NCBI GenBank assembly: GCA_014193115.1
Contig: BJHQ01000003.1
Location: forward strand, 2,768 to 66,767
Direction of reading: 5' to 3'
Length of the DNA: 64,000 nt
Source: Planctomycetota bacterium
GTDB lineage: Bacteria; Planctomycetota; UBA11346
Part shown: in pieces, positions 7,364 to 64,000 of the stretch
Position numbering within the stretch: the first letter of the stretch is position 1
Layout: every line of letters begins with the position of its first letter
Program-made: the position numbers and the translations under genes
Notes under the pieces: model-generated
Seen by the model: only the letters and a program-made list of their open reading frames with translations
Databases searched by the model: none
What the model was told of the DNA's origin: nothing

Positions 7364-7372
7364 GCCGGCGGT

Positions 7373-15356: not shown

Positions 15357-15364
15357 CCTCCGCC

Positions 15365-15490
15365 GCCAGCGGCGTTGCGAGCGCCAGCGGCGTTGCGAGC
15401 GCCAGCGGCGTAGCGAGCGCCAGCGGCGTTGCGGTCGCCAGCGGCGTTGCGGTCGCCAGCGGCGTTGCGGTCGCCAGCGGCGTTGCCGGC
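15365..15490. repeat. 18-bp tandem repeat, 7 copies (GCCAGCGGCGTTGCGAGC, with variants)
   Basis: Perfect periodicity with two variants (GAGC, then GTCG). Intergenic between the small membrane protein gene and the histidine kinase gene. Confidence 0.9.
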
Positions 15491-48334: not shown

Positions 48335-50011
48335 ATGACTCCTGTCTCAACCGTCCCACCCCAGTTCTCCCGCGAAGCAGGGTCGTCGACCCGCTCACCG
48401 GTCGATAACATCCTGATCTTCGATACCACCTTGCGCGATGGCGAGCAATCGCCTGGCGCGTCGATGAACCTGACAGAAAAAGTCGAAGTCGCCCGCACCC
48501 TGGAGGGCCTGGGCGTGGATATCATTGAGGCCGGATTTCCGATCGCGTCGCCTGACGACTTCGCCGCGGTCCAGAGCATCGCCCGGGAAACCAGCCGGTC
48601 CCGGATTTGCGGACTGGCCCGAAGTGTCCGCGGCGACATCGAGCGCTGCGCCGACGCCGTCCGCCCGGCTGGCGCCCGGGCCCGAATCCACGTGTTCCTG
48701 GCGACCAGCGCCATCCATCGCCAGTTCAAGCTGAACAAGGCGAAAGAAGAGATCGTGCGCATGGCGCGGACTGCGGTCGAGCATGCCCGCAGCCTGATCG
48801 ACGATGTCGAGTTCTCCTGCGAGGACGCGAGCCGCACGGAGCCTGATTTCCTGTCGGAAGTGGTCGAGGCGGTGATCGCTGCAGGCGCGAGCACCGTGAA
48901 CATCCCCGACACCCTGGGCTATGCCTATCCCGAAGACTACGCGGCGCTGATCCGGCATTTGAAGCAGCGGGTCCGCGGCATCGACCAGGTGGTGATCAGC
49001 GTCCACTGCCACAACGATCTGGGTTTGGCGGTGGCCAACAGCCTGGCAGCGATCCGCGCCGGTGCCCGGCAGGTCGAATGCACCATCAATGGCATCGGCG
49101 AACGGGCCGGCAACTGCGCCATGGAAGAAGTCGTGATGGCGATGCGAGTCCGGCGGGACCAGTTCCCCGGCGCGGCCGGTCCGCTGTGGACCGGTATCGA
49201 CAGCACCAAGCTGTTCGGTGCCAGCCGCCTGGTCCAGTCGATCACCGGCCTGCCGTTGCAGCGCAACAAGGCCATCGTCGGCGACAATGCCTTTGCCCAC
49301 GAATCCGGAATTCATCAGGACGGGGTGATCAAGAATCCCGAATGCTATGAGATCATGACCCCCGCCTCAGTGGGCGTGCCAGCGACCAACCTGGTCCTGG
49401 GTAAGCACTCCGGCCGGGCCGCTCTGGCCAAACGATTCACCGACCTGGGGGTGGCGGTGGCTGACACCGATCTGGACCGGGTCTTCGCCGCGTTCAAGAC
49501 CTTGGCCGATCGGAAGAAAGAAATTTACGATGGCGATCTGATCGCCCTGGTCGAAGAGGTCGTCCGCGGCCACACCATCAGCGAATGGCGGTTGGACCAC
49601 CTGCACCATTCCGCCACCGCTGGCGAAGGCACCTCACCCAAGCTGGCGACGGCCACCGTCCGGCTGATCCGCGACGGCGAGGCCCGCACCGACGCGGCCA
49701 CCGGCGACGGCCCGGTTGAGGCCGTGGTGCTGGCGATGAACCGGATCTGCGGCATTTCCGGCACGGTCGAGGACTACCGCCTGCGCGCCGTGACCAAGGG
49801 CGGCGACGCCCAGGGCGAGGTCGCGATCCGGGCCAGGTTCACCCGCGTCGACCCGAGCCAGCCGGCGATCGTCGTCGGCGGTAAGGGGCTGAGCACCGAC
49901 ATCGTCCACGCCAGCGCCTTGGCCTGGCTCGACGCGATCAACCGCGCCGCGGTCTATCAGGCCCGGACTCTGGCCAGCCATCAGGCCCAAGCAGCGGCGC
50001 TGATCCCGTAA
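48335..50011 (+). CDS. leuA: 2-isopropylmalate synthase
   Basis: IFDTTLRDGEQSPGASM, HCHNDLGLAVANSLAAI and a C-terminal LeuA dimerisation/regulatory domain. Confidence 0.9.
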   Translation: MTPVSTVPPQFSREAGSSTRSPVDNILIFDTTLRDGEQSPGASMNLTEKVEVARTLEGLGVDIIEAGFPIASPDDFAAVQSIARETSRSRICGLARSVRGDIERCADAVRPAGARARIHVFLATSAIHRQFKLNKAKEEIVRMARTAVEHARSLIDDVEFSCEDASRTEPDFLSEVVEAVIAAGASTVNIPDTLGYAYPEDYAALIRHLKQRVRGIDQVVISVHCHNDLGLAVANSLAAIRAGARQVECTINGIGERAGNCAMEEVVMAMRVRRDQFPGAAGPLWTGIDSTKLFGASRLVQSITGLPLQRNKAIVGDNAFAHESGIHQDGVIKNPECYEIMTPASVGVPATNLVLGKHSGRAALAKRFTDLGVAVADTDLDRVFAAFKTLADRKKEIYDGDLIALVEEVVRGHTISEWRLDHLHHSATAGEGTSPKLATATVRLIRDGEARTDAATGDGPVEAVVLAMNRICGISGTVEDYRLRAVTKGGDAQGEVAIRARFTRVDPSQPAIVVGGKGLSTDIVHASALAWLDAINRAAVYQARTLASHQAQAAALIP

Positions 50012-50097
50012 GTCGCTGGTCGGTCGTGGAGCGATGTGCATGCTCCAAGGCCATCGCTCTGCGGATCGTGCATCACCCCGAGAAACGCAGTTGGGGA

Positions 50098-50128
50098 GCC
50101 GCCAAGACGGCCATGGCGCCTTGGCGGT
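50098..50128. terminator. candidate bidirectional hairpin terminator between the convergent leuA and kinase genes
   Basis: GCCGCCAAG-N13-CTTGGCGGT stem-loop followed by TCATCTGCAATTCTGC. There is no canonical U-run. Confidence 0.3.
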
Positions 50129-50154
50129 TCATCTGCAATTCTGCAGATCAGGGT

Positions 50155-51444
50155 TCAGGCCGGCAGAGTCACGGTGAACCGTGCCCCGCCCAGCGGTCCG
50201 TCCTCGACCGAGATCGCGCCTCCGTGCCCGGCGATCAGTGTGTGGGCGATGGCCAGGCCCAGGCCCGTTCCCTGGCTGCGGGTGGAATGGAACGGAGTGA
50301 ATAAATGCTGCCGCAGTTCAGGCGCGATGCCGGGGCCATCGTCATCGATGGTCAGGCGCAGGCGCAGGCCGCCGTCCTCGGCCAGGGCCTGGTCGGCGGT
50401 CACCACCACCCGTCCAGGCCCGCCTTCGCCGCCTTGGTCGCTGCGCGCCTCGGCCACTGCATGGACCGCATTCTGGACCAGGTTGAGCAGGACCTGGCGA
50501 ATCTGCCCTGGGTCGAGGGCGACCTCGCCGCCCTGCCAGCGGTCGGCCAGGGTCAACGCCACCTGGGGCGGAGCTTCTGCCCGGACCAGATCGCAGACTG
50601 CACGGGCCAGGTCGCCGGGAATCGTCGGCCGCCGATCCGGCGCCCGGGCCCGGGTGAAGGTCAACAGATCACCCACCGTCCGGTCGAGGTCGCGGACGCC
50701 GGCGCCGATCGCCTCGGCCCAGCGCCGGCGGCGGAGGGAATCGGGATCGTTTCCCGCCAGATCGTGGAGGAGCAGCGAGGCGAAACCCTGGATGCCGTTG
50801 AGCGGGTTGCGCACTTCGTGGGCGACGCCGGCAGCCATGGCGCCGAGCTGACGCAGGCGGTCTTCCCGTTCGAGGTGGTCGTGGAGGCGGCGCAGCTCGG
50901 TCACGTCTTCGAATATCTCGACGGCGCCGAGCAGCGTGGAGCCGACCGGCGACGCGCCCGGGGCGGCCGGCTCTGCCCGGACCGGCGCCGCAGAGCAGGC
51001 CAGGATCCGCTTGCCTCCGGGGCCGGGCACGGTCCTCTCATACCGCCTGGGCCGGCCATCGCGCAGCACCTCAAGCAGCGGACTGCCGGGGAAGGCCGTG
51101 GCCCAATGTGCGCCCACCGGATCGGCCAGAACCTTGCTGAGCGCCGCCGCCGCCGCTGGATTGCAGGTGGTGACCACGCCCAGGGGATCGACCGCGACCA
51201 CGCCCGAAGCCACCGAGCCGAGCACCAGGTCGAGCCAGGCGGTCAGCCGGTCGAGCTGGGCCAGACGTTCGGCCAGCTCGCGGTTGGCGGCGGTCAGCCG
51301 GGCATTGGCCTCGACCAGCTCGCGGGTCCGTGCCGACAACAGGCTTTCCAGGCGCTGGACCTGGGCCGCCAAAGCCCCGGTGGTCTCATCGAACAGGCGC
51401 AGGGCGGCAGCAAGATCGGGCAGCCCGGTCTGAGGTTCGTTCAT
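50155..51444 (-). CDS. sensor histidine kinase (coiled-coil, PAS, HisKA and HATPase domains)
   Basis: H-box AHEVRNPLNGIQGF and G-boxes DDGPGIAPE ... GTGLGLAIAHTLIAGHGG. Start chosen at MNEPQTG. Confidence 0.85.
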   Translation of the reverse strand: MNEPQTGLPDLAAALRLFDETTGALAAQVQRLESLLSARTRELVEANARLTAANRELAERLAQLDRLTAWLDLVLGSVASGVVAVDPLGVVTTCNPAAAAALSKVLADPVGAHWATAFPGSPLLEVLRDGRPRRYERTVPGPGGKRILACSAAPVRAEPAAPGASPVGSTLLGAVEIFEDVTELRRLHDHLEREDRLRQLGAMAAGVAHEVRNPLNGIQGFASLLLHDLAGNDPDSLRRRRWAEAIGAGVRDLDRTVGDLLTFTRARAPDRRPTIPGDLARAVCDLVRAEAPPQVALTLADRWQGGEVALDPGQIRQVLLNLVQNAVHAVAEARSDQGGEGGPGRVVVTADQALAEDGGLRLRLTIDDDGPGIAPELRQHLFTPFHSTRSQGTGLGLAIAHTLIAGHGGAISVEDGPLGGARFTVTLPA

Positions 51445-51614
51445 CCGCGGTCTCGGCACCAGAGATCCGCCTGGAAAACCCAGGCATGAACCGCCAGGAC
51501 GCCAGGGCGCCAAGGAATTCGGCTGGAACATCCCGCGAGGAACAGGGGCTTCCCTCGTGATCGACGCGATCGACGTGGTTGCAGCCCTGCGCAGCGGGGA
51601 CGTTCTTTGCCAGG

Positions 51615-51668
51615 CCCTGGCCGGTTGTGAGTCCCTGGCCGGTTGTGAGTCCCTGGCCGGGCTTGCGT
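51615..51668. repeat. 18-bp tandem repeat x3 (CCCTGGCCGGTTGTGAGT)
   Basis: Direct periodicity in the gap between the operon's last gene and the kinase gene. Confidence 0.8.
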
Positions 51669-51761
51669 CCCGGCATCGCGAAACCGGACATCCTCTCGCG
51701 GCACACAAAGAAAAGCTGGTGTCGATTGGGAGGTCACGACTGGTTCAAGCACGAAGCCGCC

Positions 51762-52103
51762 TTATCGCCGCAGGTCGAGGAACTTGCTGGCCTCTGGGCT
51801 TGATGGCACACCGTAGGCCCGGACCGCCCGTTCGACCTCTCCGGCATGATCCAGGTGCAGGCTCAGGCGCTGGCGGTGCTCGGCAAGCAGCTCCTGGGCC
51901 AGCGCCTGCAAGGCAACAGCCTCTTCGGCCTCGGCCAGCTGCCCGGCATCGGCGATGATCGCCCCGGCGACGGCGGCGGCGATCTGGTCGGCGAGGACAT
52001 CAAGCTGCTCGGCATCAGGATCTTCTTGGACCAGCAGGGCAACCACCTGGCGCAGGGCGTCGCGCGCGATGGCGAACGGACTCGGTGCGGCGGACTGGTT
52101 CAT
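51762..52103 (-). CDS. hypothetical helical protein (last gene of the large minus-strand operon)
   Basis: Start MNQSAAPS overlaps the upstream stop (ATGA). Confidence 0.45.
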   Translation of the reverse strand: MNQSAAPSPFAIARDALRQVVALLVQEDPDAEQLDVLADQIAAAVAGAIIADAGQLAEAEEAVALQALAQELLAEHRQRLSLHLDHAGEVERAVRAYGVPSSPEASKFLDLRR

Positions 52104-52951
52104 GGCAGCGTGCTGGTGATGGCCTGGGCGGCCGGTCCGAGATCGCTGGTCGGCCACGTCAGAAGAAAGGCAGCGATGGCAGCGCGCACCGCCGCCGCCG
52201 CCTCCGCTTTGACCGCCGGCTCGGCGCGGCGGGCCTGTTCCGCCTGGAACCACAACCGCAGGTAGGCGACTTTCGGACGGTCGGCACGATCCAGGCCAAG
52301 ATCCTCGATCCGTTCGAGTGCGGCCAGTCCGTCGGCGAGATCGTTGGCGACGTGGTCACCGCCCGCCGCAACCAGGTCGCGGCAGCACTCGGCGATGGCC
52401 AGACGGTTGGCTGCGGCCAGCACCGGCGCCTGCCGGGCAGTGACCGCCGGACGGGCCTGGTCGAGGGGATCGGTGGAATGGCGCGTGGAACGGCCGGCGA
52501 ATTCGGCCATCGCCGCACGCAGGGACTCCCGGGCCACGTCGCGACCGCCTTTGGCCGCGACGATGTCGGGCTGTTCAGCGATCTCGCGCAGCCCTCCGCG
52601 GCCGGGGACGATCGGCCGGGTGGATGCCGCGCCGAGACCGGCGATGGCCTGGTCGCGGCTGCGGATCGCCGCATCGATCCGGCGCAGCAGCAGGTCGGTG
52701 GGATCGCCGCCACTCGGTTCGCCGGTGGAGGGCAGGGCCGGCGCCAGCCGCGGCTGGGGAGGCAAGGGCGGCGCCCCAGGCTCGGCTGAGGCGCCAGAAC
52801 CCAGCAGCAGAAAACCCAGCAGCAGAGAACACAGCAGCGGACAGCCGCCCGCAGCACTCCACCTGGGCGGTGCTCCCGCCCGCCGCCCAGGCATCCCGCG
52901 CGCCTCCGCGGAGTTGCGTCTTGGTGGTCGGTCGGCAGCGCCGAGGTTCAT
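52100..52951 (-). CDS. secreted hypothetical protein
   Basis: Signal peptide CPLLCSLLLGFLLLGSGASA. ATGA overlap with the upstream gene. Confidence 0.5.
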   Translation of the reverse strand: MNLGAADRPPRRNSAEARGMPGRRAGAPPRWSAAGGCPLLCSLLLGFLLLGSGASAEPGAPPLPPQPRLAPALPSTGEPSGGDPTDLLLRRIDAAIRSRDQAIAGLGAASTRPIVPGRGGLREIAEQPDIVAAKGGRDVARESLRAAMAEFAGRSTRHSTDPLDQARPAVTARQAPVLAAANRLAIAECCRDLVAAGGDHVANDLADGLAALERIEDLGLDRADRPKVAYLRLWFQAEQARRAEPAVKAEAAAAVRAAIAAFLLTWPTSDLGPAAQAITSTLP

Positions 52952-55092
52952 GGCGCCTCCCCGCGATAGGCTTTGATCGCCTCGCGCAGCCGGCCGTTGG
53001 CCCGGTGGTGATCGCCGAGGATGCGGGCGGCGAGCTCGCGGTCGCGGTCGCCGAGCAGCGGATCGGCCATCAAATCGGTCAACGAGGTCAGGGCGACGCT
53101 CTCCTGCCCAGCGACCAGGGCGCAGCGGGCTCGGCCGATGATCGCGGCGTGGCGCAGGGCCGCCGGCGGGGATTCATCGAGCACCCGCTGATAATAGCCC
53201 ATCGCGGTTCCGGCCAGCACCGCCTGCTGGGTACGATCGCGCTCGGCCTGGTGCCATGCGGCCTGGGCCAGGTAGAACAGCACCCGGGCCCGCACCGGTC
53301 CGGGATGGTCGCCGAGCTTGCTGACCAGGGCAGCAACCAGCTCATCGAGCTGCAACGACGGCTCCCGCCGATCCGCCAACGCGTCGCCACGGAGCAGTTC
53401 CCACAGCGCCGCCACCGCCGCATCGGTGCGCTCCAGCTCGGCATAGCACCGGGCGATGGCGACCAGCAGCTCGGCATCGAGGTCGGTGCGGGGAAAATCC
53501 TGGCGGGCGCGGAGGAAGGCGAACAACGCCTCGACGGTGCGCGAGGCCTGGGCAGCCGGCGGCGGCTGGGACGTTCCTGGCGAAGCGCGCGCCGCCGCTG
53601 GCGGAGCATGGGCCGCACCAGCGCTCGCTGAACCGCCAGCGCCATGGGGCTGGGCAGGCGAAGGGGCCGCTGGCGCCGAGGCGAGCAGACACAACCCGAC
53701 CCGCAGGGCGCAGCGGGCGTAGGCTTCGATGGCGATGTCGGGCCGGCCGTCCCCTTTGGCCCAGGCCAGATGCAACCGGCGGTAGATCGCAAGCGCTTCG
53801 CCGAAGCGGCCAGCGCCATAGGCGCAATCGGCGGCCAGGATCTGCAGCCGCTGGGGCATGCGTTCGATGTGCAGGCCCGCGGCCTCTCGCCACTTGTCGA
53901 GGTGGATGGCGGCCTCGGCCCAGCGACCGGCAGCGTGCAGCATCTCGGCCAGGCGCAGCCGGGCAGCGGCGACGTCGGCAGCCGCCCACGGTTCGTCGGC
54001 GAACCGTTCGAGCAGCAGGTGCAGGTCATCCATCGCCTCATCGCGGGCGATCGGGTCGGCGTGGCGGGTGGCCTGGGCCTCGCCGGCCGCGGCTGCCGCC
54101 AGGAACACTCCAGGCAGGTCGTGGTCGTCATTGCCGGCCCGGGCGATGTAGTTGCGGTAGACCCCGCGGGCATCGAGGTGGTTGCCAAGTGCGGCCATGC
54201 AGTCGCCGATCCCGCGGATCCCCGACTGGACCCACCGCCGCACCGCCGGATCGGCGGAGCCGCTGAAGCCGTCGACCAGCGCTCCGTACAGTTCGATGGC
54301 CGCGACATTGCGCCGGCCGTCCTGTTCGATCCGTGCTCGGCGATAGGCGGCCTCGGCGGCGGCGCCCGGGTCGCGATCCGACGGGCTCCAGGTCGAGGCC
54401 CGTTCATAGGCGCGCTCGGCGCGGCGCCGGTCACCGGGGGCGTCGCTCGCGGCCGAGCGTGCCGCGGAGACCACGATCCTCCGGGTCCGCGCATCGGGGT
54501 CATCGCGCCAGGCCAGGCCGGCGGCGCCGCACAGCCGGTCGAGCACGTCGTCCAGGTCGAGGCCGCTGACCATCAGGGTCACCGGCCGGGTGCGACCCGG
54601 AGCGTTGGCATCATCGATCACCACGCCGCACAGCCCGGCCAGCTCGGCCAGCACCTCTTCCATGGCTGCGCCGCGCAGGCTGGCAGAGATCTTTCCGCTC
54701 GCGATCGATAGTCCGGGCAGGCGACGGCTCTGCTGGTCATTGGCAGCCGCGGTCGTCCGAGCAGCAGGGCCGGGGGCGGCCGGCTCCACCGCCACCAGGC
54801 CCTTGGCCTGGGCCTCGCGCAGGCGTTCCCGGGCGGCGCGCAGCGCGGCGAGATCGTCGGCCAGGGCAGGACGCTGAGCCGTCTGGGCCGGACCGGCCGA
54901 ACCCACCAGCTGCATCGGCCGTGGAACCGGCTCCAAGGTCGGTTGCAGACCGGGCTCGGCAGCCAGGACCGGGCCGGAAACCAGGGTGTACCACACCACG
55001 CTCACCAACCAGGCAGGCGCCATCGAAAAAGCGCCTGGGCCGAAACCAGCGCGCGCAGTCGGCATTCCCGGGGATTTTCCTTGTTCAGCCAT
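52948..55092 (-). CDS. secreted TPR-repeat protein with an N-terminal STN-like (secretin/TonB N-terminus) module
   Basis: Signal peptide MAPAWLVSVVWYTLVSGPVLAAEP. An STN-like block (ISASLRGAAMEEVLAELAGLCGVVID) is followed by long TPR-like helical repeats. Start ATGGCTGA overlaps the upstream stop. Confidence 0.6.
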   Translation of the reverse strand: MAEQGKSPGMPTARAGFGPGAFSMAPAWLVSVVWYTLVSGPVLAAEPGLQPTLEPVPRPMQLVGSAGPAQTAQRPALADDLAALRAARERLREAQAKGLVAVEPAAPGPAARTTAAANDQQSRRLPGLSIASGKISASLRGAAMEEVLAELAGLCGVVIDDANAPGRTRPVTLMVSGLDLDDVLDRLCGAAGLAWRDDPDARTRRIVVSAARSAASDAPGDRRRAERAYERASTWSPSDRDPGAAAEAAYRRARIEQDGRRNVAAIELYGALVDGFSGSADPAVRRWVQSGIRGIGDCMAALGNHLDARGVYRNYIARAGNDDHDLPGVFLAAAAAGEAQATRHADPIARDEAMDDLHLLLERFADEPWAAADVAAARLRLAEMLHAAGRWAEAAIHLDKWREAAGLHIERMPQRLQILAADCAYGAGRFGEALAIYRRLHLAWAKGDGRPDIAIEAYARCALRVGLCLLASAPAAPSPAQPHGAGGSASAGAAHAPPAAARASPGTSQPPPAAQASRTVEALFAFLRARQDFPRTDLDAELLVAIARCYAELERTDAAVAALWELLRGDALADRREPSLQLDELVAALVSKLGDHPGPVRARVLFYLAQAAWHQAERDRTQQAVLAGTAMGYYQRVLDESPPAALRHAAIIGRARCALVAGQESVALTSLTDLMADPLLGDRDRELAARILGDHHRANGRLREAIKAYRGEAP

Positions 55093-56752
55093 GGCCGTGC
55101 TCCGCGGCATGGGCAGCCGGGGCATGACCGGCATCATGGCCCGCGGCCGGTTCAGCCGGTCCATGGCCGGGTTCATGCTTATGGTCGTGTTCGGCCGGTT
55201 CGCGCTGGACCGTGGCGGGGGCCGGCTGTTCCAGCAGCCTGCCGAGCATCAGGTAGGCGCGGTGCACGGCCTGGCGGTTGCGGACCAACTCCGCACCAGA
55301 GCGCGAGCCGCCGCCGGGCAGGCGCTCCGCCACCCACGAATCCTCCTCGGCAAGCACGTTGTAGACCACCGCCAAGGCTCCGGCCCGATCGTTGGCCTGG
55401 GCCAGGCTGTCAGCGTGGTCGAGATGCAGGCCGGGGTCCGTGAACGGCGGATTTCCCGGCTCGCCGGCCAAGGCGAAGGCGGCGGCGGCGCGGCCATGGT
55501 CGCCCTGGGTGCGATGGGTGCGTGCCAGCACCAGGCTGATTTCGGCGGCGTGGGCGGGATGGCGTTGGCGCAACCGTTCGAGCAGCATCACTCCCCTGGC
55601 AACGGCATCGCCGTCGCCGCTCGCCAGCCGGGCCAGGGCCGTGGCGAAGTCTTCGGCGTAGCTGTCGGTTGGAACGGTTGAGGTCGCGACCCGGGTCCGA
55701 CGCAGCTCGCCCGCCAGATCGCCCAGCCGCACCACCGTGATCGACAAGGTGGTGGCGCAGATCGACAAGGCGACCACCGCCGCGGCGAGCAGCCAGCGGG
55801 CGCCGCGCAGTTCGATCGGAGCCGCCGCCGGGACCAGACCGGGATAGGCCATGGGCTGCGGGGTCGGAGTCGGGGCGATGCCCAGCACCTGGCGCACGTC
55901 CACTGCATCGCTGGTCACGCCAGGCGCCGGAGCGTTCTGCGCCAGCATCTTGTCGATGGCGCCTTCGTGCTTGGCCAGGTCGGCGGCGGCAGGGGCGGGT
56001 TGGCGGGCCTCGTTCGGACCGGGCGTACTGTCAGTGAGCTGCTGGAGCAGGGCATCGATGTCGCTCTGGGCGATGATCCCGGTCGACGTCCGGGTGTCCT
56101 GTTTGCCGCCCTGTTTGGCGACCAGCGCATCGACCTCTTCGGTGGACAGGTTGAGGATCGGCTTGGTGTCGGGCGTCGCCATCCCGGCTTTGCTGCCCGA
56201 AGCCGGGGCGCTGACCGAGCCGGTGCCAGTCGAAGCCGGGGACCTGACCGAGCCGGTGCCGGCCGCAGCCGAGCCGGGTTCACCGGTCGGATTGGGCGTC
56301 ACCGCCGAGGTCGTCCGCGGAGCGCTCGCCGGCGCGGCGCTTCCTGGTGTGGTCAGCGCCGCGGTCTCCGGTCCGGCCGGCGTGGCGGCCGAACTCAGCT
56401 CAGCCAGCAGCCGGTCGATGTCTGAAACGCCAGCCGAGCTGGTACCAGGAGCCGGAGGCGGCGCATCGTCGCGGGTCTCGGCCGCGGCCCGTTCGGCCTT
56501 GTGCGCCCCGGACAGTTGGGCGAGCAGGGCGTCGATATCCGCGGCATTGCCCGACGGGCTGCCAGCGGAGGACGACCCGCGGTCGTCGGCGGAATCGCCT
56601 CCAGGCTGGGCAAGCAATTGCTCGCTGTTGGTCCCCGCATCGGCCCGGGGGGCTTTCGCGTCGCTGTGCCCGCCCACGTCCCCGCCCAGCGCCGCAAGCA
56701 GGGCGTCGATCTCCTCCGTGCTGGGGGCGTCTGCCACGGGTGTCCCTCGCAT
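55085..56752 (-). CDS. FimV-like protein: acidic (E/D)IDALLAxL repeats, a single TM, a TPR domain and a His-rich C-terminal tail
   Basis: Five copies of xIDALLxxL, TM WLLAAAVVALSICATTLSITVV, then a TPR-like region. It ends in HDHKHEPGHGP...HAAEHGHG. Confidence 0.55.
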   Translation of the reverse strand: MRGTPVADAPSTEEIDALLAALGGDVGGHSDAKAPRADAGTNSEQLLAQPGGDSADDRGSSSAGSPSGNAADIDALLAQLSGAHKAERAAAETRDDAPPPAPGTSSAGVSDIDRLLAELSSAATPAGPETAALTTPGSAAPASAPRTTSAVTPNPTGEPGSAAAGTGSVRSPASTGTGSVSAPASGSKAGMATPDTKPILNLSTEEVDALVAKQGGKQDTRTSTGIIAQSDIDALLQQLTDSTPGPNEARQPAPAAADLAKHEGAIDKMLAQNAPAPGVTSDAVDVRQVLGIAPTPTPQPMAYPGLVPAAAPIELRGARWLLAAAVVALSICATTLSITVVRLGDLAGELRRTRVATSTVPTDSYAEDFATALARLASGDGDAVARGVMLLERLRQRHPAHAAEISLVLARTHRTQGDHGRAAAAFALAGEPGNPPFTDPGLHLDHADSLAQANDRAGALAVVYNVLAEEDSWVAERLPGGGSRSGAELVRNRQAVHRAYLMLGRLLEQPAPATVQREPAEHDHKHEPGHGPAEPAAGHDAGHAPAAHAAEHGHG

Positions 56753-56921
56753 TCCTCGACAGAGTCGGCTGCCAACCCCGACGACGCACGGACCATGCCA
56801 TGGTCACCGGGAAGCGCCCGAGGGACATCCGCCGTACCTAGTCTACCACCGATCCGGGAGCCCGGTCCAACGGGTTCCCGGGCAGCGGCGGCCAGCCGCC
56901 GATGAGCGCAGCGACTCGTCG

Positions 56922-59105
56922 CTAGGCCTCAACCAGCATCACGACCTCTTCGTTGAACACCGCCTTGGGGTCGATCTGGGCATCAGCAATCGACGACTTC
57001 ATCGCCTGGTCGCTGGAGACGAAGAACCGGGCGTGGGCGCTGGCGCCGTCGGCACGGCGGACCTCCAGATCGTTGCCGTCGGCGACGGATTGCCCGACCT
57101 GGGCTGGGCGGGCGTTGATCCACAGCGCGGCGCCATCGGCCAAGGCGCCGACGACCACGCCGCTCCGGGTGGCGCGGAAGGTCACCTGCTCGGCGAATTC
57201 CGGGACTCCGAACGAGGTTGCGGATTGCCGTCCGGGCAGGCCGCTGAGCGGATCGAGCCGGCCGGCGATGCGCAGGACCTCGGCCTTGAACCGCGGCCGG
57301 GTCAGCCACCACCACAGGAAAAGCGCGAGCAGGGCGAGCAGGATCAGCAGCAGGCCGAGGATGATCGGCAGCCAATCGCGATCGACCCGCAGGGTCAGCG
57401 ACTTGCCGGCGATGGCCTTGACGTCAGCGGATTCGATCGCGGCAGCGCTGGCCGAACCCGGACCGGTGGCAGAGATCCGGACTTTTTGCGGCGGTTTCAG
57501 GTCCCAGGCGCCGAGCTCCTTGGTGGTGAAGGTGATTTCGCCGGTCCAGCCCCGAGCCACCGCCGGATCGCGCTGGAGAGCCACCGTGCGTTCGCCGCCC
57601 TCGGCCCGGGTGAGCACGACGTCGAGCGCTTGCAGCGGAACCCGGCCGCCGGCCTGGCGCAGGTCGAGCCGGATCGGCCGTCCGGCGATCACCGCCGCTG
57701 GTTCGCCTTTGTCGCCGAGCGGGAAACCGCCGAGCAGGGTCAACCGGCCGAGGGCCATCCACTTCAGATCGAGCGGACGAGCATCGGTGCGGTCCTTCCA
57801 TGCGGCATTGGGCACCAGGCTGACCCGGCCCTTGCCGTCGCCAGTGGGCAGGATCACGCCGATCAGCTGCTGGAGCAGCGGTTCCGTGGTCGCGCCGTCG
57901 ATGGCCAGGGCCAGCCGGGCGTCCTTTTCCAGTTCGGTGCGCAGCGCGTCGCTGACCGCGGTCTCGCCGGGGGCCCGGGTCCAGGTGTGGGTCAGTTTCA
58001 GCGCATCGCCGCCGAACAGGCTGTCCGTGTCCAGGCCCGGGCCGAGGGCCAGGCGATGGGCGACCCGCTGGGGCGCCTGGATCAGGATTTCGCAGGGCCG
58101 CGGCTGAGCGGCCGCGTCAGCGGCGGTGCGGCGCAGCAGATAGGCGCCGCCGGCCTCGACTCCGGCCAAGCGATAGACCCGGCAGGGGCCGCTGTCGTCG
58201 ATCCGCGTCACCCGCGGCTCGGTGGCGACCGCGGCCTTGCCGGCATCGGCACCAGCTTTGCCGGCATCGGTACCAGCCTTGCCGGTATCGGCCGTGGCGT
58301 CCTTCGCGGTGGGCAGCTCCTTGCCATCCGGGCCGATGAAGCTGACTGTGAAGTCCGTGTATGGACCGGGCACGTGAAGCCAGATCAGGGCCCCGCGATT
58401 GGCCTCGGGGATGGCGACCGGGGCGTCGCCGGGGGCGGCCACGGTCAAACCGGTCGGCTGGGGCACACCGAGGGCGGTCAAGGCCGGCAGCAAGGTTTTC
58501 AGCTCAAGCGTGCGCAGATTGAGACGCTGGGCGTCGGGTCGCAGCTCGGCGATCCAGCTCAGCGCTGAATCCGGCCGGGGCGAGGCCACGGTGTCGAGCA
58601 GCAGCCAGCGGCGATGGGCGGCTTTCACCGCCGACAGCTTCGGCTCCAGGGCGGTCTGCCGGGCGGCGGTGTTGATCTGGTCGCGGCTGGCATCGGCGCC
58701 GGCCGCGGTGAGCAGCGCGGGATCGGTGTCGGTCGGCGAGCCGACGACCTCGGTCAGGCCGTCGCCGGCGATCACGGTCAGCACCGGGCCGGATTCCGGG
58801 GCGGTCAGCCAGGACACGGCTTTTGGATAATCGGCCCAGCGTCCGGCATAGGTCGCAGCGCCCAGGTCGGGGCCCGGCTCGCCAGTTCGGGCGAAGGTGA
58901 CGGCCTCGATTTTCTTGGCATCGATTGGGGTCAGCAGGTGCTGCTGGAGGAAGCGCAGGCGATCGATAACGGCCTTGTCGGCCGTGGTCCGCGAGCCATC
59001 GACCGCGATCGCCGCCTGAACCACCGGCGCCGGCGGCGCGGGTTCACCAGGGAACGCCGCTGCGAAGAGCATCGCCAGGAGCAGGAGGCCACGCCAAGTC
59101 GACAT
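56922..59105 (-). CDS. large secreted protein (728 aa), function unknown
   Basis: Signal peptide MSTWRGLLLLAMLFAAAFPGEP. High GC3. Contains an in-frame 21-bp x3 repeat (58238-58300). The ORF-track N-terminal extension is read-through of the tandem repeats. Confidence 0.6.
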   Translation of the reverse strand: MSTWRGLLLLAMLFAAAFPGEPAPPAPVVQAAIAVDGSRTTADKAVIDRLRFLQQHLLTPIDAKKIEAVTFARTGEPGPDLGAATYAGRWADYPKAVSWLTAPESGPVLTVIAGDGLTEVVGSPTDTDPALLTAAGADASRDQINTAARQTALEPKLSAVKAAHRRWLLLDTVASPRPDSALSWIAELRPDAQRLNLRTLELKTLLPALTALGVPQPTGLTVAAPGDAPVAIPEANRGALIWLHVPGPYTDFTVSFIGPDGKELPTAKDATADTGKAGTDAGKAGADAGKAAVATEPRVTRIDDSGPCRVYRLAGVEAGGAYLLRRTAADAAAQPRPCEILIQAPQRVAHRLALGPGLDTDSLFGGDALKLTHTWTRAPGETAVSDALRTELEKDARLALAIDGATTEPLLQQLIGVILPTGDGKGRVSLVPNAAWKDRTDARPLDLKWMALGRLTLLGGFPLGDKGEPAAVIAGRPIRLDLRQAGGRVPLQALDVVLTRAEGGERTVALQRDPAVARGWTGEITFTTKELGAWDLKPPQKVRISATGPGSASAAAIESADVKAIAGKSLTLRVDRDWLPIILGLLLILLALLALFLWWWLTRPRFKAEVLRIAGRLDPLSGLPGRQSATSFGVPEFAEQVTFRATRSGVVVGALADGAALWINARPAQVGQSVADGNDLEVRRADGASAHARFFVSSDQAMKSSIADAQIDPKAVFNEEVVMLVEA

Positions 59106-59180
59106 GGAGAACCCCCAGCAACTGGACATCACATGGCCTTCGACGCTCTGGGGTTGAGATATCACATCATGAACGAAACA

Positions 59181-59675
59181 GGGGCCCCGTCGCGCGAGCG
59201 ATGGGGCGGGCGCCGAGGGACGGTGGGCGGATAAAATGGGCGCAGCCCATCCGCCCACTTTTCCGGCTGCGCAGCAGTCGAAAAAGAGTCCCGACAAAGC
59301 CCGGGGGTAGGCCCGCAGGGCCGTAGGGGCGAAGCCCCTGGTGAAGGGGCCCCGTCGCGCGAGCGATGGGGCGGGCGCCGAGGGACGGTGGGCGGATAAA
59401 ATGGGCGCAGCCCATCCGCCCACTTTTCCGGCTGCGCAGCAGTCGAAAAAGAGTCGCGACAAAGCCCGGGGGTAGGCCCGTAGGGCCGTAGGGGCGAAGC
59501 CCCTGGTGAAGGGGCCCCGTCGCGCGAGCGATGGGGCGGGCGCCGAGGGACGGTGGGCGGATACAATGGGCGCAGCCCATCCGCCCACTTTTCCGGCTGC
59601 GCAGCAGTCGAAAAAGAGTCGCGACAAAGCCCGGGGGTAGGCCCGTAGGGCCGTAGGGGCGAGGCCCCTGGGTAA
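59181..59675. repeat. three tandem copies of a 165-bp hairpin-rich element (about 98% identical)
   Basis: Copies lie at 59181-59345, 59346-59510 and 59511-59675. Each unit carries CCCCGTCGC-GCGA-GCGATGGGG (GNRA tetraloop), the nested GTGGGCGGAT...ATGGGCGCAGCCCAT...ATCCGCCCAC, the palindromes GCTGCGCAGC and GTCGCGAC, and the hairpins GGCCCGTAGGGCC and GGGGCGAAGCCCC. Confidence 0.9.
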
Positions 59676-59680
59676 AAAGC

Positions 59681-62152
59681 TCATGGCAGCGTCACGATCA
59701 CGGGCCGGGTGTAGACCTCGGCGTCGCCGACGTCGGGCTTGAAGGTGATCGTGGCGGTTCCGGCGTAGTCACCGCTCGGGACTTTGCGCGGACGCAGCAC
59801 GTCGATCTTGATCGTCCCCGAGCTGCCGACTTCGAGCCGGTTCGGGGTGGCGGTGGCGCGCAGGTCGTAGGCCGCGGTCAGGACCTCGCCCTCAGGGCCG
59901 ACCAGGTCCGAGACCTTGACCTTCCACTCGCCGCTGATGCCGCTGTCGAGGGCGATCGGCACGGTCTTGGCAAGCCAGGCGTTTTCCTGCCAGGCGCCGG
60001 GCTTGGGTTCGGCGATCTTGATCGTGCCGCTGGCCTCGCCGCCGCCGTCACCGGTGGTGGCATCGCCATCGCCCAGGCGCAGCTTGGTCTTGGAGCGGAC
60101 ATGCTGATAGACCACCGGCACTGATCGCGGCGGCAGCTCGCCGAAACGGAGCTCGGCGGTGCCGCGGTATTCGCCGGGAGCGGTCGCGATCGGCACTGCG
60201 CCGACCACTTTGCCGCTGCTATCATAGGTGAAACTCAACGTGCCCGGGCCTTGCACGGTCAGCGAACCGGGTTGCAGGGCCTGGGCCGGCAGATCGCGGT
60301 GGCCGGGGCTGGACGCGGCCAGGGTCGGCTCGTCGGTATTGGGTTTCAATCGGCGTTCGGCGCCGTCGAACGGATAATTGAGCGCGGTGATCGCCGACGT
60401 GCGCAGCGGCTCGTCGGGTTTGGCCGGAGCCGGCGGCGGTGGCGTGCCGGCCGGCCGCGGCGTCGAGGCGGTGGCGGTGTGGCGACCGGCGATCTCGCTG
60501 CGGAAACGCACCGCCAAGGTGCCCTGGCCGGGAACGGTGAGCGGTTGCGGAAAGCTGAATCCGCCCTGGGCGGGAAAACTGAGGGTGCCGGCGGGACCGC
60601 TGGCGGCGACCGCCACTGTGCCGCTGGTCTCCAGGTTCACCCAGGTCGGCGGCAGCTGATAGGCATCAGCGCCCCAGGCCAGGGCCACCGGTTCGAGTTT
60701 CGGCGGCGGTGGCGGCGGCGCCTTCAGCTGCGGATCAACGACGAAGGTGTCCTGCTTGGTCAGCACCGCCTGGCCGCCATAGGTCAGCCGATACGTGACC
60801 CGCAGCTGGTGTGGCCGGCTGCGATCGGTGTTGGCCGCCAAGGCGGTCGCCCACGGCGCCGAATAGCGGGGCAGATCACTGGGTTTGTCGGTACGCGGCA
60901 GATTGGCGCGGTGCAGCGGCTGGCCGCCGGCGGTGTCGTCGGTGATGGTGCAGTCGACCTGGGTGCGGTCGGCGAAACGGCGCAGAGCGTCGAGCTGGTA
61001 ACCGATCCCGCTGACCTCGACCCCGGGCTGGACCACGGCACCCTCGGCCACCGGCGACGGGATGGCGATGGGCGTGGCGCGGATGCCGAGCTGCATCGCC
61101 ACATAGATGTTGCGCGGAACCCCATCGAACTGTGGCCGCCACGAGCCTGGCGGCGGTTCGCCCACCGACACGCATTCCACGTTGGTCCGGCTGCGCTCGG
61201 CATCCTCGGCCTTGGGATAGCGGTAGACCAGGGCGCCGCCGATGGCATCGATGCCGCCATCCACCGGCAGAGCGGTGATCCGGCCACGGCGGCTGCGCTG
61301 GTCGTTCTTGACCACCGCCACGGTCAGCCGAGCGCCGCCCGGCGGCACGTCGAAGGCGTCGCCAGGCTGGAAGCGGCTGGTGTCATAGACGAAGACGTCG
61401 TTTTCATCGGCCAGGATGGCGAAGAACCGGTCGACCAGCTGGTCGGCGCTGGTTACCTCGATGTGCCGGCCGCGGGTGATGGCGGCGATCTCGCCCAGGG
61501 TCGGCTTCGACGCCTTGCCCTCGGGGTTTAGGCGCAGGCAGTCGAGCACCCAGCCGCGATCAGCGAACCGCCGGGCCTGGTCGAGGCTGTCCCGGGGCTC
61601 GTCGCTGGGATCGCCGTCGGTGAAGAACAGCACCCGGGTGCCGGCCGGGGCGCGGACCCGGTCGAGCTCGCCATAAGCGGCGGCCAAAGCCCGGGCGTAG
61701 TTCGTGGCCCAGCCGTCGAAGGTCAGCTTGTCGTCGATGATCTCACGGGCGGCGACCCGATCGCCGATGGTCGCGAGCGGCCGGGTCGGCATGTGGACCT
61801 CGCCGTTGCGGCCGAAGCCGACGACCGCCACCGGCTTGCCGTCGCGCATGGTGCCGATCGCCAACTGCACGCCATCGACGGTGTAGCGCTTGGGATCGTT
61901 CTCGCGCATCGATCCGGATTGATCAACGATCATCAGCAGCGGCCGCTCCGACACGTCCACCGCAGTCAGGGCAGCGGCGAGCAGGAGGGATCCGCCGAGC
62001 CGCCAAGCCGCCAAGGAGTTCAGGCCCATCGTCGCGCCGCCCACCGGAGCGCCGACCTGCCGGCCCGCACCCAGTCCGACCATCGTTGTCCCGGAAGCCT
62101 TTGCGCCCTGGAGCCTTGGCGTTTCCACAGCGGGGCGAATGTGCGGTTCCAT
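59681..62152 (-). CDS. secreted von Willebrand factor A (vWA) domain protein with a large beta-rich C-terminal region
   Basis: Signal/TM MGLNSLAAWRLGGSLLLAAAL. MIDAS motif LLMIVDQSGSMREND plus VLFFTDGDPSD. Start chosen at MEPHIRP, 12 nt after the upstream stop. The ORF is open to 62188. Confidence 0.7.
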   Translation of the reverse strand: MEPHIRPAVETPRLQGAKASGTTMVGLGAGRQVGAPVGGATMGLNSLAAWRLGGSLLLAAALTAVDVSERPLLMIVDQSGSMRENDPKRYTVDGVQLAIGTMRDGKPVAVVGFGRNGEVHMPTRPLATIGDRVAAREIIDDKLTFDGWATNYARALAAAYGELDRVRAPAGTRVLFFTDGDPSDEPRDSLDQARRFADRGWVLDCLRLNPEGKASKPTLGEIAAITRGRHIEVTSADQLVDRFFAILADENDVFVYDTSRFQPGDAFDVPPGGARLTVAVVKNDQRSRRGRITALPVDGGIDAIGGALVYRYPKAEDAERSRTNVECVSVGEPPPGSWRPQFDGVPRNIYVAMQLGIRATPIAIPSPVAEGAVVQPGVEVSGIGYQLDALRRFADRTQVDCTITDDTAGGQPLHRANLPRTDKPSDLPRYSAPWATALAANTDRSRPHQLRVTYRLTYGGQAVLTKQDTFVVDPQLKAPPPPPPKLEPVALAWGADAYQLPPTWVNLETSGTVAVAASGPAGTLSFPAQGGFSFPQPLTVPGQGTLAVRFRSEIAGRHTATASTPRPAGTPPPPAPAKPDEPLRTSAITALNYPFDGAERRLKPNTDEPTLAASSPGHRDLPAQALQPGSLTVQGPGTLSFTYDSSGKVVGAVPIATAPGEYRGTAELRFGELPPRSVPVVYQHVRSKTKLRLGDGDATTGDGGGEASGTIKIAEPKPGAWQENAWLAKTVPIALDSGISGEWKVKVSDLVGPEGEVLTAAYDLRATATPNRLEVGSSGTIKIDVLRPRKVPSGDYAGTATITFKPDVGDAEVYTRPVIVTLP

Positions 62153-62163
62153 ACGATCTCCGG

Positions 62164-63213
62164 TCAGGCGGCGGTGATGACGATGCATTTTTGGATGGGC
62201 AGGCCAGTCTGGTCGGCCAGACCGAGCTGACGCAGGCCGATCACGGTCCCGGCCGGCGCGCCGGCGCCGGGGCGCTCCACCCGATCGAAGCGCTTGGGGT
62301 CGTGGCGCTCAGGGTCGAAGCGCTCGCCCGCGGGAATGAGCAGCGGGCGCAGGCCGGCTTCGCGCAACCGGTCGAGGACCGTCTTCGCCGCTGGTGTGTC
62401 TGCGCGCTCGGCATGTCGAGTGTGCAGGTTCAGCACCGCCCGCAGATCAATGGCGGCCGGCAGCAGGCACAGCTCGACGCCCCGGGCGAGGTCGTCGCGC
62501 AGCGGTTTGCGCCATTGGGTGGCGAGGGCGGCGTACAGTTCCTCCAGCAGTCCCCAGGCGGCGATCCGCTCTGGCGATGGCGCGGGGTCGGGCAGCACCG
62601 CCTGGCCGGCGCGGACCACCGTGCCGCCCGCATCGACCAGGCCGGTGGTCACCACCACGGCCCGGGCCACCGGCAGGCGCATCGGTTGGGCCGGCGGTGT
62701 TTCGACCGGATCCACCAGCCGGAACGGCGCGAGCAGCGGAATAAGATCGCGGCGGATCTCGGCCAGGGCGGCGTGCAGCCGGGCATAGGCCGCGCCCAGG
62801 TAAAAACCGCCCAATTTATCGCAGAATGCCAACACATCGCCGGCCCGCTGGGCGAGAGCCGGACCAGCCGCGACCAGCACCGGCCGGGCCTTGGTCAAGA
62901 AGGCGGATTCCGCCGGATCAACCTGGGGACCGGATTCCGCCAAGGTTTTCGCAAGCAGTTCGAGGTGATCGCAGAGCACCGCCAGCGGCGAAGAAGTGGC
63001 AGGAGGCGCGGCTGGTGCCACGGGCGGCTCGCCAGCGGAAAGGATTGGGACCACGGCCGGGACGTGTGCAGCCGCAACGGGAGCTGGCGGGATTTCCCGT
63101 TGTTCCAGTGCGGCACGCAATTCCTGCGCGAGCGCCGCGACCTCGTCCAACGCGGTGCGGGCGCGAGCGAGGGCTGCGTCGTGGCGGGCGAGGAGATGGG
63201 CCAGGTCAGGCAT
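62164..63213 (-). CDS. GrpE-domain protein (long N-terminal coiled coil plus GrpE-like C-terminal beta domain)
   Basis: C-terminal GERFDPERHDPKRFDRVE...GTVIGLRQLGL...IQKCIVIT matches the GrpE signature region (GEPFDPNLHEA...V.V). Confidence 0.55.
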   Translation of the reverse strand: MPDLAHLLARHDAALARARTALDEVAALAQELRAALEQREIPPAPVAAAHVPAVVPILSAGEPPVAPAAPPATSSPLAVLCDHLELLAKTLAESGPQVDPAESAFLTKARPVLVAAGPALAQRAGDVLAFCDKLGGFYLGAAYARLHAALAEIRRDLIPLLAPFRLVDPVETPPAQPMRLPVARAVVVTTGLVDAGGTVVRAGQAVLPDPAPSPERIAAWGLLEELYAALATQWRKPLRDDLARGVELCLLPAAIDLRAVLNLHTRHAERADTPAAKTVLDRLREAGLRPLLIPAGERFDPERHDPKRFDRVERPGAGAPAGTVIGLRQLGLADQTGLPIQKCIVITAA

Positions 63214-63227
63214 GGATCAGCGCGTCA

Positions 63228-63496
63228 GCGTTCCTGGGAGCGCCGAGCGCCAGCTCGGCCCGCATGTGATTGTGCGAGATGGATCCACTTCCAGGCGAGC
63301 TGGGGCTCGCCTCTCCCAGCCAAATCCCTCCAAACTCCAGCCGAGAGGCGTTCGGCGCTCCCGGGCAAGTCCAACCAAATCCAGCTCCAGCCGAGCAGGC
63401 GCTCGGCGCTCCCAGCAAACTCCAGCCGAGCAGGCGCTCGGCGCTCCCAGGCAAGTCCAATCCAACGCAAGGAGAGCTGGGGCTCGCCTCTCCCAG
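63228..63496. promoter_or_regulatory. repeat array in the promoter region of the GrpE-domain operon
   Basis: Three direct copies of about 38 bp containing GGCG(C/T)TCGGCGCTCCC at 63344-63458, plus an inverted copy GGGAGCGCCGAGCGCC at 63236-63251, 23 nt upstream of the ATG. The array is bracketed by two copies of G(C/A)GAGCTGGGGCTCGCCTCTCCCAG. Confidence 0.6.
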
Positions 63497-63670
63497 TTAA
63501 ATCGATCCGCTGGTGCGTGGACCCCGCGAAGGGGTCCCCCAAGCGTAGCGAGAGGGGGTGGAGCAGGCGCCGCCTTCTGGCGGCAGCAGGCCAAAGGCCT
63601 GCGACCTTCGCAGCGCGGAGCGCAGCGGAGCTGGAGCAGGGCCGAAGGCCCGTGGGGGGGAACCCCCATG

Positions 63671-64000
63671 CTAATGCACTCCGCCAAAAGGATTTTCGGC
63701 GTCAGGGACCGATTCCGCGCTGGCCTTGAGGCGGTGCCAGGTGGTGCCGTCGGCGCGGACCGCGGCCAGTTCGCGGTTCTTGTCCATCACCAGGACCAGG
63801 GCGAAGGCTCCGGCCAGGGCCTCCAGATGGACCTGGATTTCCTGGGTGAACTGGCCGGACCAGGGTTCGGCCTCGGGCTTGGCCAGGTCGAACCAGCCGA
63901 GGGTGGTCGGCTGGACTTCGGCCATCGGCCCGGCGCTGGCCGGATCGAGTCCGAGCAGGTGGTCGTGGTAATAGGCGAACAGCGACAGCTCGGTGGCCTT
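63671..64000 (-). CDS. hypothetical protein, C-terminal part (the N-terminus lies beyond the window)
   Basis: Open frame with high GC3 running to the window edge. No recognisable motif. Confidence 0.4.
   Translation of the reverse strand, partial: KATELSLFAYYHDHLLGLDPASAGPMAEVQPTTLGWFDLAKPEAEPWSGQFTQEIQVHLEALAGAFALVLVMDKNRELAAVRADGTTWHRLKASAESVPDAENPFGGVH

Follow-up and report, generated by a model that had tools for sequence, protein, structure and literature searches.

The typical fold of a miniature inverted-repeat transposable element (MITE) is a single long hairpin driven by its terminal inverted repeats (TIRs), BOX elements are modular boxA-boxB(n)-boxC repeats, and the tyrosine transposases associated with repetitive extragenic palindromic (REP) sequences, known as RAYTs, are usually single-copy genes. 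We know of no REPs that are framed by TIRs with target-site duplications (TSDs). GTAG-tagged REPs have been reported in the Planctomycetes and in the Verrucomicrobia/PVC group; as a class they are described as having tags that can degenerate, stem variants that stay complementary, G.T pairs, a clustered arrangement, and termini that provide genes with TAG stop codons (Di Nocera et al. 2013, PMC3733652). Among insertion sequences (ISs), the hallmark of the IS66 family is the combination of ends starting GTAAGCG or GTAACCG with 8-bp duplications (PMC11946415, PMC12888890). Against this background we analyzed a stretch of 64,000 nt from the Planctomycetota bacterium LBMAG53 (contig BJHQ01000003.1 of assembly GCA_014193115.1, positions 2,768 to 66,767 of the forward strand; hereafter the window), in which a hairpin-rich block of three tandem units lies between a gene with a von Willebrand factor A (vWA) domain and a gene for a putative secreted protein.

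We consider it quite probable, from comparison of sequences, that this block arose by local triplication of a non-autonomous dispersed repeat, which is specific to a clade of Planctomycetota and resembles both MITEs and REPs with their composite form, the bacterial interspersed mosaic elements (BIMEs). The repeat is dispersed, lies between genes, has a covarying structure and comes in two forms; the block itself goes back to a lineage-specific insertion and to local duplication. No description of such a family was found in Rfam 15 or in the published literature that we searched, and by these searches it is an undescribed repeat of a Planctomycetota clade, adding a new family to a phylum whose repeats are poorly catalogued.

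The array and its dispersed relatives

Tandem Repeats Finder reported the block at 59180-59671 with a period of 165, 3.0 copies, 98% matches and 0 indels, and a repeat search gave three in-register copies of which the second and third are 99% and 96% identical to the first. The original prediction, made from the letters alone, had described three tandem units of 165 bp at about 98% identity; this holds, as does the placement of the block, except that it starts at 59180 and not at 59181. Six unit positions differ among the three units (55, 112, 137, 154, 163 and 164), three of them in loops or the bulge, one in helix P3 and two at the extreme end of the array. The array, its units and the modules of the reference unit are as follows:

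59180..59674, plus strand: array of three tandem units of 165 bp each, a dispersed repeat element (Tandem Repeats Finder, repeat search, nhmmer)
59180..59344, plus strand: unit 1; a C at unit position 112 makes P3 fully paired (GGGAC/GTCCC), in this unit only
59345..59509, plus strand: unit 2, the reference for the helix coordinates below
59510..59674, plus strand: unit 3; carries A55C in the P4 bulge, A154G in the P7 loop and changes in the final two bases of the 3' tail
59350..59371, plus strand: P1 (module A), 5' hairpin CCCCGTCGC-GCGA-GCGATGGGG
59372..59468, plus strand: central domain (module B), a three-way junction closed by P2 and P3 (RNAalifold, two alignments, conserved unpaired columns)
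59372-59376 and 59464-59468, plus strand: the two strands of long-range helix P2
59382-59386 and 59453-59457, plus strand: the two strands of long-range helix P3
59388-59423, plus strand: P4 arm, a nested hairpin with a conserved AUANAAU bulge
59424-59450, plus strand: P5, the other junction arm
59472..59504, plus strand: module C, two head-to-tail GTAG-tagged REP-like hairpins (P6 and P7)

All hairpin modules listed in the original prediction were found in the units, namely the 9-bp stem CCCCGTCGC/GCGATGGGG with its GCGA loop, a nested stem of 10 + 6 bp (GTGGGCGGAT...ATCCGCCCAC enclosing ATGGGC-GCA-GCCCAT), the palindromes GCTGCGCAGC, GTCGCGAC and TCGCGCGA, and the GC hairpins GGCCC-GYA-GGGCC and GGGGC-GAA-GCCCC. 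The palindromes had been taken as free-standing; they are present, but turned out to be pieces of larger conserved helices, with GCTGCGCAGC forming the apex of P5 and GTCGCGAC including the 3' strand of P3. Likewise, the GCGA tetraloop is real but peculiar to the window copy, as a variable loop of 3 nt is usual at this place in the family. In the reference unit P6 reads GTAG-GCCC-GTA-GGGC-C and P7 reads GTAG-GGGC-GAA-GCCC-CT; GTAG-tagged P6 (GTAG-GCCC-GYA-GGGC) and P7 (GTAG-GGGC-GAA-GCCC) occur in all three units, and other subfamilies carry the degenerate tags GCAG, GTGG or GCGG.

The spacer between the two genes (585 nt as folded) is far more stable than its shuffles (z = -6.45, with 0 of 100 shuffles equal), and the better-folding strand of the array, which we call the element's plus strand, is the window's plus strand and thus antisense to the flanking genes. 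The array units are contiguous, at 165 nt each and with common 5-nt linkers, and no unique spacers separate them, so that the block had rightly been set apart from clustered regularly interspaced short palindromic repeats (CRISPR). It had also been matched to no known RNA class, and no family in Rfam 15 reached its gathering threshold: the best was Acido-Lenti-1 at 17.4 bits versus 37, beyond which E<=10 brought only a chance microRNA match in a neighboring gene. A scan for promoters and terminators gave nothing exceeding shuffles and no convincing terminator-like site.

A degenerate pattern built on the nested hairpin matched 103 DNA blocks from about 11 species-level Planctomycetota metagenome-assembled genomes (MAGs) with 3-24 blocks each. 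These blocks are fixed 8-kb loci from genomes other than LBMAG53, and they share only the repeat with the window, at 76-88% identity; by a count made by eye, about 25 of the 103 matches lie at true contig ends. With a hidden Markov model (HMM) built from the core, nhmmer found at least 158 copies in the 103 blocks and the three array units alone in the 64-kb window, and a second pattern from another part of the unit returned 17 metagenome contigs with the element from another collection. For related genomes, the question of dispersal raised by the original prediction is thereby answered in the affirmative. The copies form 127 arrays or singletons (101 singletons, 20 doublets, 4 triplets and 2 quadruplets) of variable module content, and each of these 127 is intergenic according to a codon-usage gene caller. 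Singleton lengths concentrate at 159-162 nt, so the 165-bp "period" is made up of one discrete element and its 5-nt linker; elsewhere the unit periods are mostly not multiples of 3 (127, 131, 134, 152, 169). Copies occupy both orientations and all types of intergenic region, divergent ones included, and no recurrent neighboring protein family emerged, the largest cluster, at scattered distances, holding 12 of 574 proteins. Many copies break off at a module boundary, and B-only and C-only modules occur independently.

Two side observations concern the limits of the family. The sole record with the element outside the Planctomycetota is a contig labelled as a Phenylobacterium sp. MAG (L025, NZ_JANPJP010000166.1). 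Sample VAR_61, from which this record was obtained, also yielded a family-carrying Planctomycetota MAG, and the contig is therefore probably mis-binned. Separately, some variants replace P6 with other GC modules, e.g., GGGGGCTTCGCCCCC-AAA-CCCCCGC on the reverse strand (L001 264/1560, L094 6001, L052 3792, L097 171, L091 4971), which points to a wider superfamily with shuffled modules.

The covarying fold and the two forms of the element

Unguided RNAalifold on 42 sequences recovered P1 to P7: the 5' hairpin P1, the long-range 5-bp helices P2 and P3 that enclose the junction, the nested hairpin P4 with its AUANAAU bulge, P5 as the second arm of the three-way junction, and the small 3' hairpins P6 and P7. 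Covariation was then counted in two alignments, of which A1 had been ascertained on P4 and A2 was independent and free of this ascertainment. In A1, 96.5% of cells are paired and double-sided changes occur at 22 of 50 pairs, compared with 9.3 +/- 1.6 in shuffles (0 of 500 reaching the observed value) and 4-11 in slid registers. A2 gave 97.1% paired cells and double-sided changes at 23 of 49 pairs, with shuffles at 11.1 +/- 1.5 (again 0 of 500) and slid registers at 6-9. The bulk of covariation in A1 falls in P2, P3 and P5, and the outer pairs of P4 covary at 6 of 9 in A2; P3 covaries at 5 of 5 pairs in A1 and 4 of 5 in A2, and P2 at 3 of 5 in A1. Unpaired motifs are as conserved as the stems, including the internal loops of module B between P2 and P3 (GCCGA and GACAAA), the P4 bulge, and the G and A of the G-N-A triloops. 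There is also an asymmetry between strands, since the element's plus strand has 102 G.U versus 39 A.C pairs and is the more stable one in 48 (RNA parameters) or 49 (DNA parameters) of 52 copies. The predicted branched fold of the family is unusually well supported by these comparisons.

The same alignments argue about where selection acts. Singleton variants are about as frequent in paired as in unpaired columns (0.42 versus 0.51 per column, not significant), rare states mostly disrupt pairs, and compensatory differences divide subfamilies. This combination of unpurged private mutations with compensation that separates subfamilies suggests that the fold is of importance to the agent that propagates the element, and selection seems to act on propagation and not on every resident copy. 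The original prediction had named many dispersed copies as grounds for an ordinary MITE and a lack of compensatory covariation as grounds against a functional RNA structure; dispersal and covariation do not exclude each other here, as they coexist in one family. In practice, this is a caution that strong covariation by itself is no proof of a locus-specific functional RNA.

The core is packaged in two forms. In the genomes JBBREK, JBBQCI, JACDEI and JACDEN, nearly all copies with an intact 5' end start with GTAAC(T/A)(G/A)CTCAG, and complete copies finish with CTGAGC(A/T)GTTAC. Directly outside these TIRs lie 8-bp direct repeats that match at 7-8 of 8 positions in 5 of 9 two-TIR copies (e.g., TGTGAGAA and TAGCGGGA), compared with a control mode of 2-3, and the excess of flanking direct repeats is significant for copies with TIRs (p = 0.002-0.004). 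Their orientation relative to genes is unbiased (11 versus 12). Since GTAAC ends and 8-bp TSDs match the IS66 hallmark, the TIR-bearing copies are, as far as sequence can tell, genuine MITEs that were probably mobilized by an IS66-type transposase. The termini (GTAACTGCTCAG/CTGAGCAGTTAC) had been considered as a terminal helix P0 of the RNA fold, which was rejected because only 169 of 420 cells are Watson-Crick paired across the family; once the TSDs had been found, P0 was reinterpreted as the TIR. As a separate observation, the TIR-bearing element of JBBREK repeatedly adjoins further shared sequence, caaacgggtgaccacgtgtaaacccaat on one side and acccaatatggtccgtaatcgat.gtccaaccgcgaac on the other (L058 2876-3110, L008 7100-7325, L034 4150-4363, L041 1600-1660), and may be nested in or beside another repeat.

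The second form lacks TIRs and comprises the window copies and those of JBBRLJ, JAFLCQ and a metagenome sample. The window array has no GTAAC...GTTAC ends, and the TIR-less class to which it belongs shows no excess of flanking direct repeats (LCS 5.17 versus 5.15, p = 0.66); its copies have a common 3' tail, CTGAGCA-AAAAGCT. This form is oriented: its 3' neighbor is the stop of a convergent gene in 55 cases versus 30, and in co-directional gaps 32 copies are antisense, as in the window, versus 9 in sense. When both forms are counted together, the stop codon of the convergent gene is found between -6 and +12 nt from the element's terminus in 38 of 49 cases, and 47% of these terminus-adjacent stops are TAG, compared with a genome-wide 16% (p = 3e-7). 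The junction pattern stop-(A)GCTTTT-TGCTCAGGGGC recurs at other loci, its version in the window being ccaTGAGCTTTTTACCCAGGGGC, and at locus L116 a TIR-less copy fills a co-directional gap so completely that 9 nt separate it from the stop on one side and 2 nt from the following start on the other. Judged by these patterns, the TIR-less form behaves like a REP or BIME that is oriented, with module C abutting and often supplying the stop of the upstream gene. Replication-strand bias was considered as a cause of the orientation bias and dropped, as the relation of flanking GC skew to element orientation was not significant (mean 0.005, p = 0.14). The antisense excess would reflect either counter-selection of sense insertions for over-stable folding or that the relevant strand is DNA rather than mRNA.

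The original prediction had named a recently expanded MITE- or REP-like element as one of its possibilities, and the dispersal, the local duplication and the subfamily with TIRs and 8-bp TSDs bear this out. We propose a modular unit of about 160 nt, made of a 5' hairpin (A), a three-way junction of about 100 nt (B) and two GTAG-tagged hairpins (C), whose fold would be conserved because an enzyme acting in trans must recognize the folded single-stranded element to propagate it; the likeliest candidate for the TIR-less form would be an HUH/Y1 enzyme of the RAYT type. With the same core occurring with and without transposon ends, the family offers a possible natural system for studying the interconversion of REP-like and MITE-like elements and the constraints on their internal structure.

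The vWA locus and competing explanations

The array sits where the original prediction had placed it, between the vWA stop and the start of the secreted-protein gene. The features around it are the following:

59681..62188, minus strand: upstream vWA-domain gene, an 835-aa open reading frame (ORF) with 823 aa in annotations elsewhere (Pfam VWA_2, E=7e-10; identical protein P0002)
59675..59684, minus strand: junction motif ATGAGCTTTT
59106..59179, minus strand: unique 74-nt spacer from the array to the downstream start codon (no match to the family HMM)
56922..59105, minus strand: downstream gene (727 aa), its N-terminus carrying a hydrophobic, signal-like segment MSTWRGLLLLAMLFAAAFPG
63632..63670, plus strand: solo doublet resembling P6-P7, GCAGGGCC-GAA-GGCCC-GTGGGGG-GGAA-CCCCCATG (weak nhmmer match, BLAST)

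In the junction motif, the vWA stop TGA (59681-59683) and an overlapping ATG (59682-59684) are followed by the conserved terminal tail of the element, AGCTTTTT. Public annotations place the start of the downstream gene at 716 or 735 aa. A 920-aa ORF runs from the ATG at 59684, which overlaps the vWA stop as ATGA, through the array and in frame into the downstream gene. Codon-position GC is flat in the repeat (0.67/0.73/0.73 in every frame) and 0.73/0.54/0.85 in both flanking genes, so the N-terminal extension in this ORF is spurious, as the original prediction had already held, and the repeat block is non-coding DNA with open frames.

The 727-aa product has no exact protein on record and its homologue search returned itself alone; orthologous loci were therefore reached via the vWA gene. 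In a distant relative (L106) the vWA protein is 40% identical and the 727-aa protein has a 33% identical orthologue (E=3e-19), and this gene pair overlaps by 4 nt (ATGA) without any spacer. The window retains the ATGA, and the overlapping pair in L106 indicates that the 575-nt spacer of the window is a lineage-specific insertion. Identity among copies is 0.93-0.985 within arrays but averages 0.76 between loci (95th percentile 87%), from which we conclude by sequence that arrays grow by local duplication. The window array is atypical only in repeating the full unit, as later array copies elsewhere usually lack P1. We infer that one unit inserted where two operon genes meet, the pair that overlaps in the distant relative, and that duplication on the spot then raised the number to three and left 575 nt between the genes. 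This would have broken the ancestral translational coupling, created the spurious 920-aa ORF and brought a very stable structure into the polycistronic mRNA, and by analogy with REPs and BIMEs, enterobacterial repetitive intergenic consensus (ERIC) sequences and Correia elements it may alter the relative expression of the two genes via processing, stability or partial termination and read-through. Two independent short-read assemblies of the same population break or gap at the locus, with a gap of 100 N inside the array in one (L104) and a contig end 48 nt into it in the other (L105).

Several points weigh against our interpretation. In the roughly 0.9 Mb of loci examined, we found no convincing autonomous IS with matching TIRs, orphan TIR pair or transposase, and a crude regular-expression search found no HUH/Y1-like ORF of the RAYT type. 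A 102-aa ORF between inverted copies in L001 was considered as a RAYT candidate and rejected on inspection, its sequence not being transposase-like. A MITE needs no internal structure, so that the MITE form alone leaves the covariation of P2 and P3 unexplained, and the TIR-less copies mostly have their better-folding strand antisense to genes, which means that the host mRNA usually carries the weaker fold. The relative with the "empty site" is one of 33-40% protein identity, so that the insertion point is not base-exact. Dispersal within LBMAG53 is deduced from relatives, as the window covers 64 kb of that genome, and the exact P5 hairpin of the window had 0 matches in the metagenome collection.

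Conceivably, the central domain of about 100 nt has a function of its own as a folded nucleic acid and is carried by two vehicles, an IS66-type MITE and a REP/BIME-like element. We regard this as unlikely but worth keeping in mind; the domain could then be a new structured RNA, acting as a ribozyme or recruiting a protein, or else the part of an undescribed HUH-type mobilization system that is recognized as a single strand, and the same structured "cargo" would be spreading by two different routes. A slightly less probable version holds that the core, especially the junction closed by P2 and P3, is a functional structured RNA riding MITE and REP-like vehicles, for instance a ribozyme, a small RNA present in many copies or a module that recruits a protein, and that some copies, possibly including the window array, act in situ. 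The strong covariation of the long-range helices, which goes beyond the needs of a DDE transposase, speaks for this, together with the unpaired motifs that are conserved like stems (GCCGA, GACAAA, the AUANAAU bulge, the G-N-A triloops), the strand asymmetry in G.U versus A.C pairs and in stability, and the independence of B-only and C-only modules. Yet there is no match to an Rfam family and no promoter-like or convincing terminator-like signal; copies lie in both orientations and all intergenic types without association to any gene, private mutations in stems are unpurged, truncations at module boundaries are many, and the transcribed strand is the weaker-folding one in most TIR-less copies. 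On these comparisons, in-situ function is argued against for most copies.

The original prediction had also suggested an intercistronic regulatory RNA of this operon. That an attenuator, processing or stability element evolved specifically for the vWA/secreted-protein pair would fit the position between two co-transcribed genes and the extremely structured spacer (z = -6.45), and any such insertion would in practice affect the mRNA. But the same unit stands beside hundreds of unrelated genes and in both orientations, the near-identical units indicate recent duplication and not a conserved design, and the orthologous pair in L106 has no spacer at all. Dispersal together with this empty orthologous site essentially refutes an operon-specific regulator, which we hold to be very improbable. 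At this locus, the reading as a novel regulatory RNA gives way to the plain one of a selfish or semi-domesticated repeat at a gene junction.

Hardly more credible is that the covariation is a mutational by-product of template switching in quasi-palindromes, which would copy changes from arm to arm with no selection on structure. Local GC-rich hairpins with 3-nt loops are the classic substrate of template switching; most helices of the element are of this kind, and the stems of resident copies show no purifying selection. However, covariation is densest in P2 and P3, where two other hairpins and a distance of about 65-90 nt separate the paired strands, and the unpaired loop motifs show conservation as well. 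Finally, translation of the repeats as a 3 x 55-aa N-terminal extension from the ATG overlapping the vWA stop can practically be discounted: the 920-aa ORF is in frame (165 being divisible by 3), L106 shows the ATGA overlap as the ancestral arrangement of the start, and in-frame REPs inside ORFs are known (PMC3733652), but the repeat has no codon-position GC signal, all three minus-strand frames are open so that in-frame continuity is cheap, the hydrophobic signal-like segment would come to lie 190 residues into the protein, most periods elsewhere are not divisible by 3, and all other copies are intergenic.

Further observations concern the surroundings of the array. The ATG overlapping the vWA stop (59681-59684) may be a relic of the ancestral start, whose counterpart in L106 lies at 3278-3281. 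Positions 1-22472 of L104 represent the same population as positions 49573-64000 of the window, and public gene calls there give the operon context: a PD40-repeat protein, a Ser/Thr kinase, a dynamin-like GTPase, an HSP70-like protein, a 349-aa protein and the vWA protein, followed by three large proteins without a Pfam match (735, 550 and 691 aa). As predicted gene content, this cluster of dynamin, HSP70 and vWA genes is unusual. The next intergenic gap of the same operon (window 63214-63670) holds a second hairpin-rich repeat block of 4-5 copies with a 35-50-nt unit, whose hairpins GCCGAGCAGGCGCTCGGC and GAGCTGGGGCTCGCCTCTCCCAG have short matches of 94-100% in the Planctomycetota MAG locus L077; this block seems to belong to another dispersed family of hairpin repeats. 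The solo doublet lies at the end of this gap and adjoins the TAG stop (CTA, 63671-63673) of a minus-strand gene (63671..64000). Its nhmmer match is weak (HMM positions 123-159, E=0.032 in a 500-nt search), and BLAST aligned it at 83.6% over 55 nt with an array end in L074, which suggests that the REP-like module also occurs alone and obeys the same stop-codon rule. The window also contains other tandem repeats with periods that are multiples of 3, namely 6.8 copies of 18 nt at 96% identity and 27/54-nt repeats (15364-15486, 7363-7490).

Comparison with known repeat systems

With pneumococcal BOX elements the family shares a modular make-up in which internal repeats vary in number and terminal modules may be missing, as well as stable predicted RNA folds and an intergenic location. 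The two differ in being unrelated in sequence and phylum, and the family amplifies whole units as well as modules. Acido-Lenti-1 RNA (RF01687) is the sole Rfam model that scores and matches the P7'-P6' GC hairpins on the minus strand. Membership was rejected at 17 bits versus a gathering threshold of 37, with an E-value of about 0.4 and 41 nt covered.

Like the MITEs, among them Correia/NEMIS, ERIC, RUP and MITEAba12, the element is small, non-coding, dispersed, located beside or between genes, co-transcribed and strongly folded. The TIRs of one subfamily begin with GTAAC and are flanked by 8-bp TSDs, as in IS66-type elements (PMC11946415, PMC12888890). In contrast to MITEs, the window copies have neither TIR nor TSD, the TIR-less form is biased in orientation, and the interior of the family has a conserved branched structure of its own.

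The likeness to REPs and BIMEs extends from the extragenic, multi-copy and GC-rich nature of the element to its small hairpins preceded by GTAG (degenerating to GCAG/GTGG), the compensatory changes and G.T pairs in their stems, head-to-tail clusters and tandem amplification, and the window class further resembles them in lacking TIRs and TSDs and in termini that adjoin or supply TAG-enriched stops. However, the unit measures about 160 nt versus 20-40 nt for a REP, and only module C is REP-like, with P6 and P7 stems of 4-6 bp at the short end of the published range. The family adds to this a three-way junction of about 100 nt with covarying long-range helices and conserved loops, and in sister genomes its core is framed by TIRs with TSDs. 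Taken by its sequence, the element at this locus thus falls outside a strict test for MITEs, with no TIR and no TSD, and outside a strict definition of REPs, as a 160-nt composite, but would work like both.

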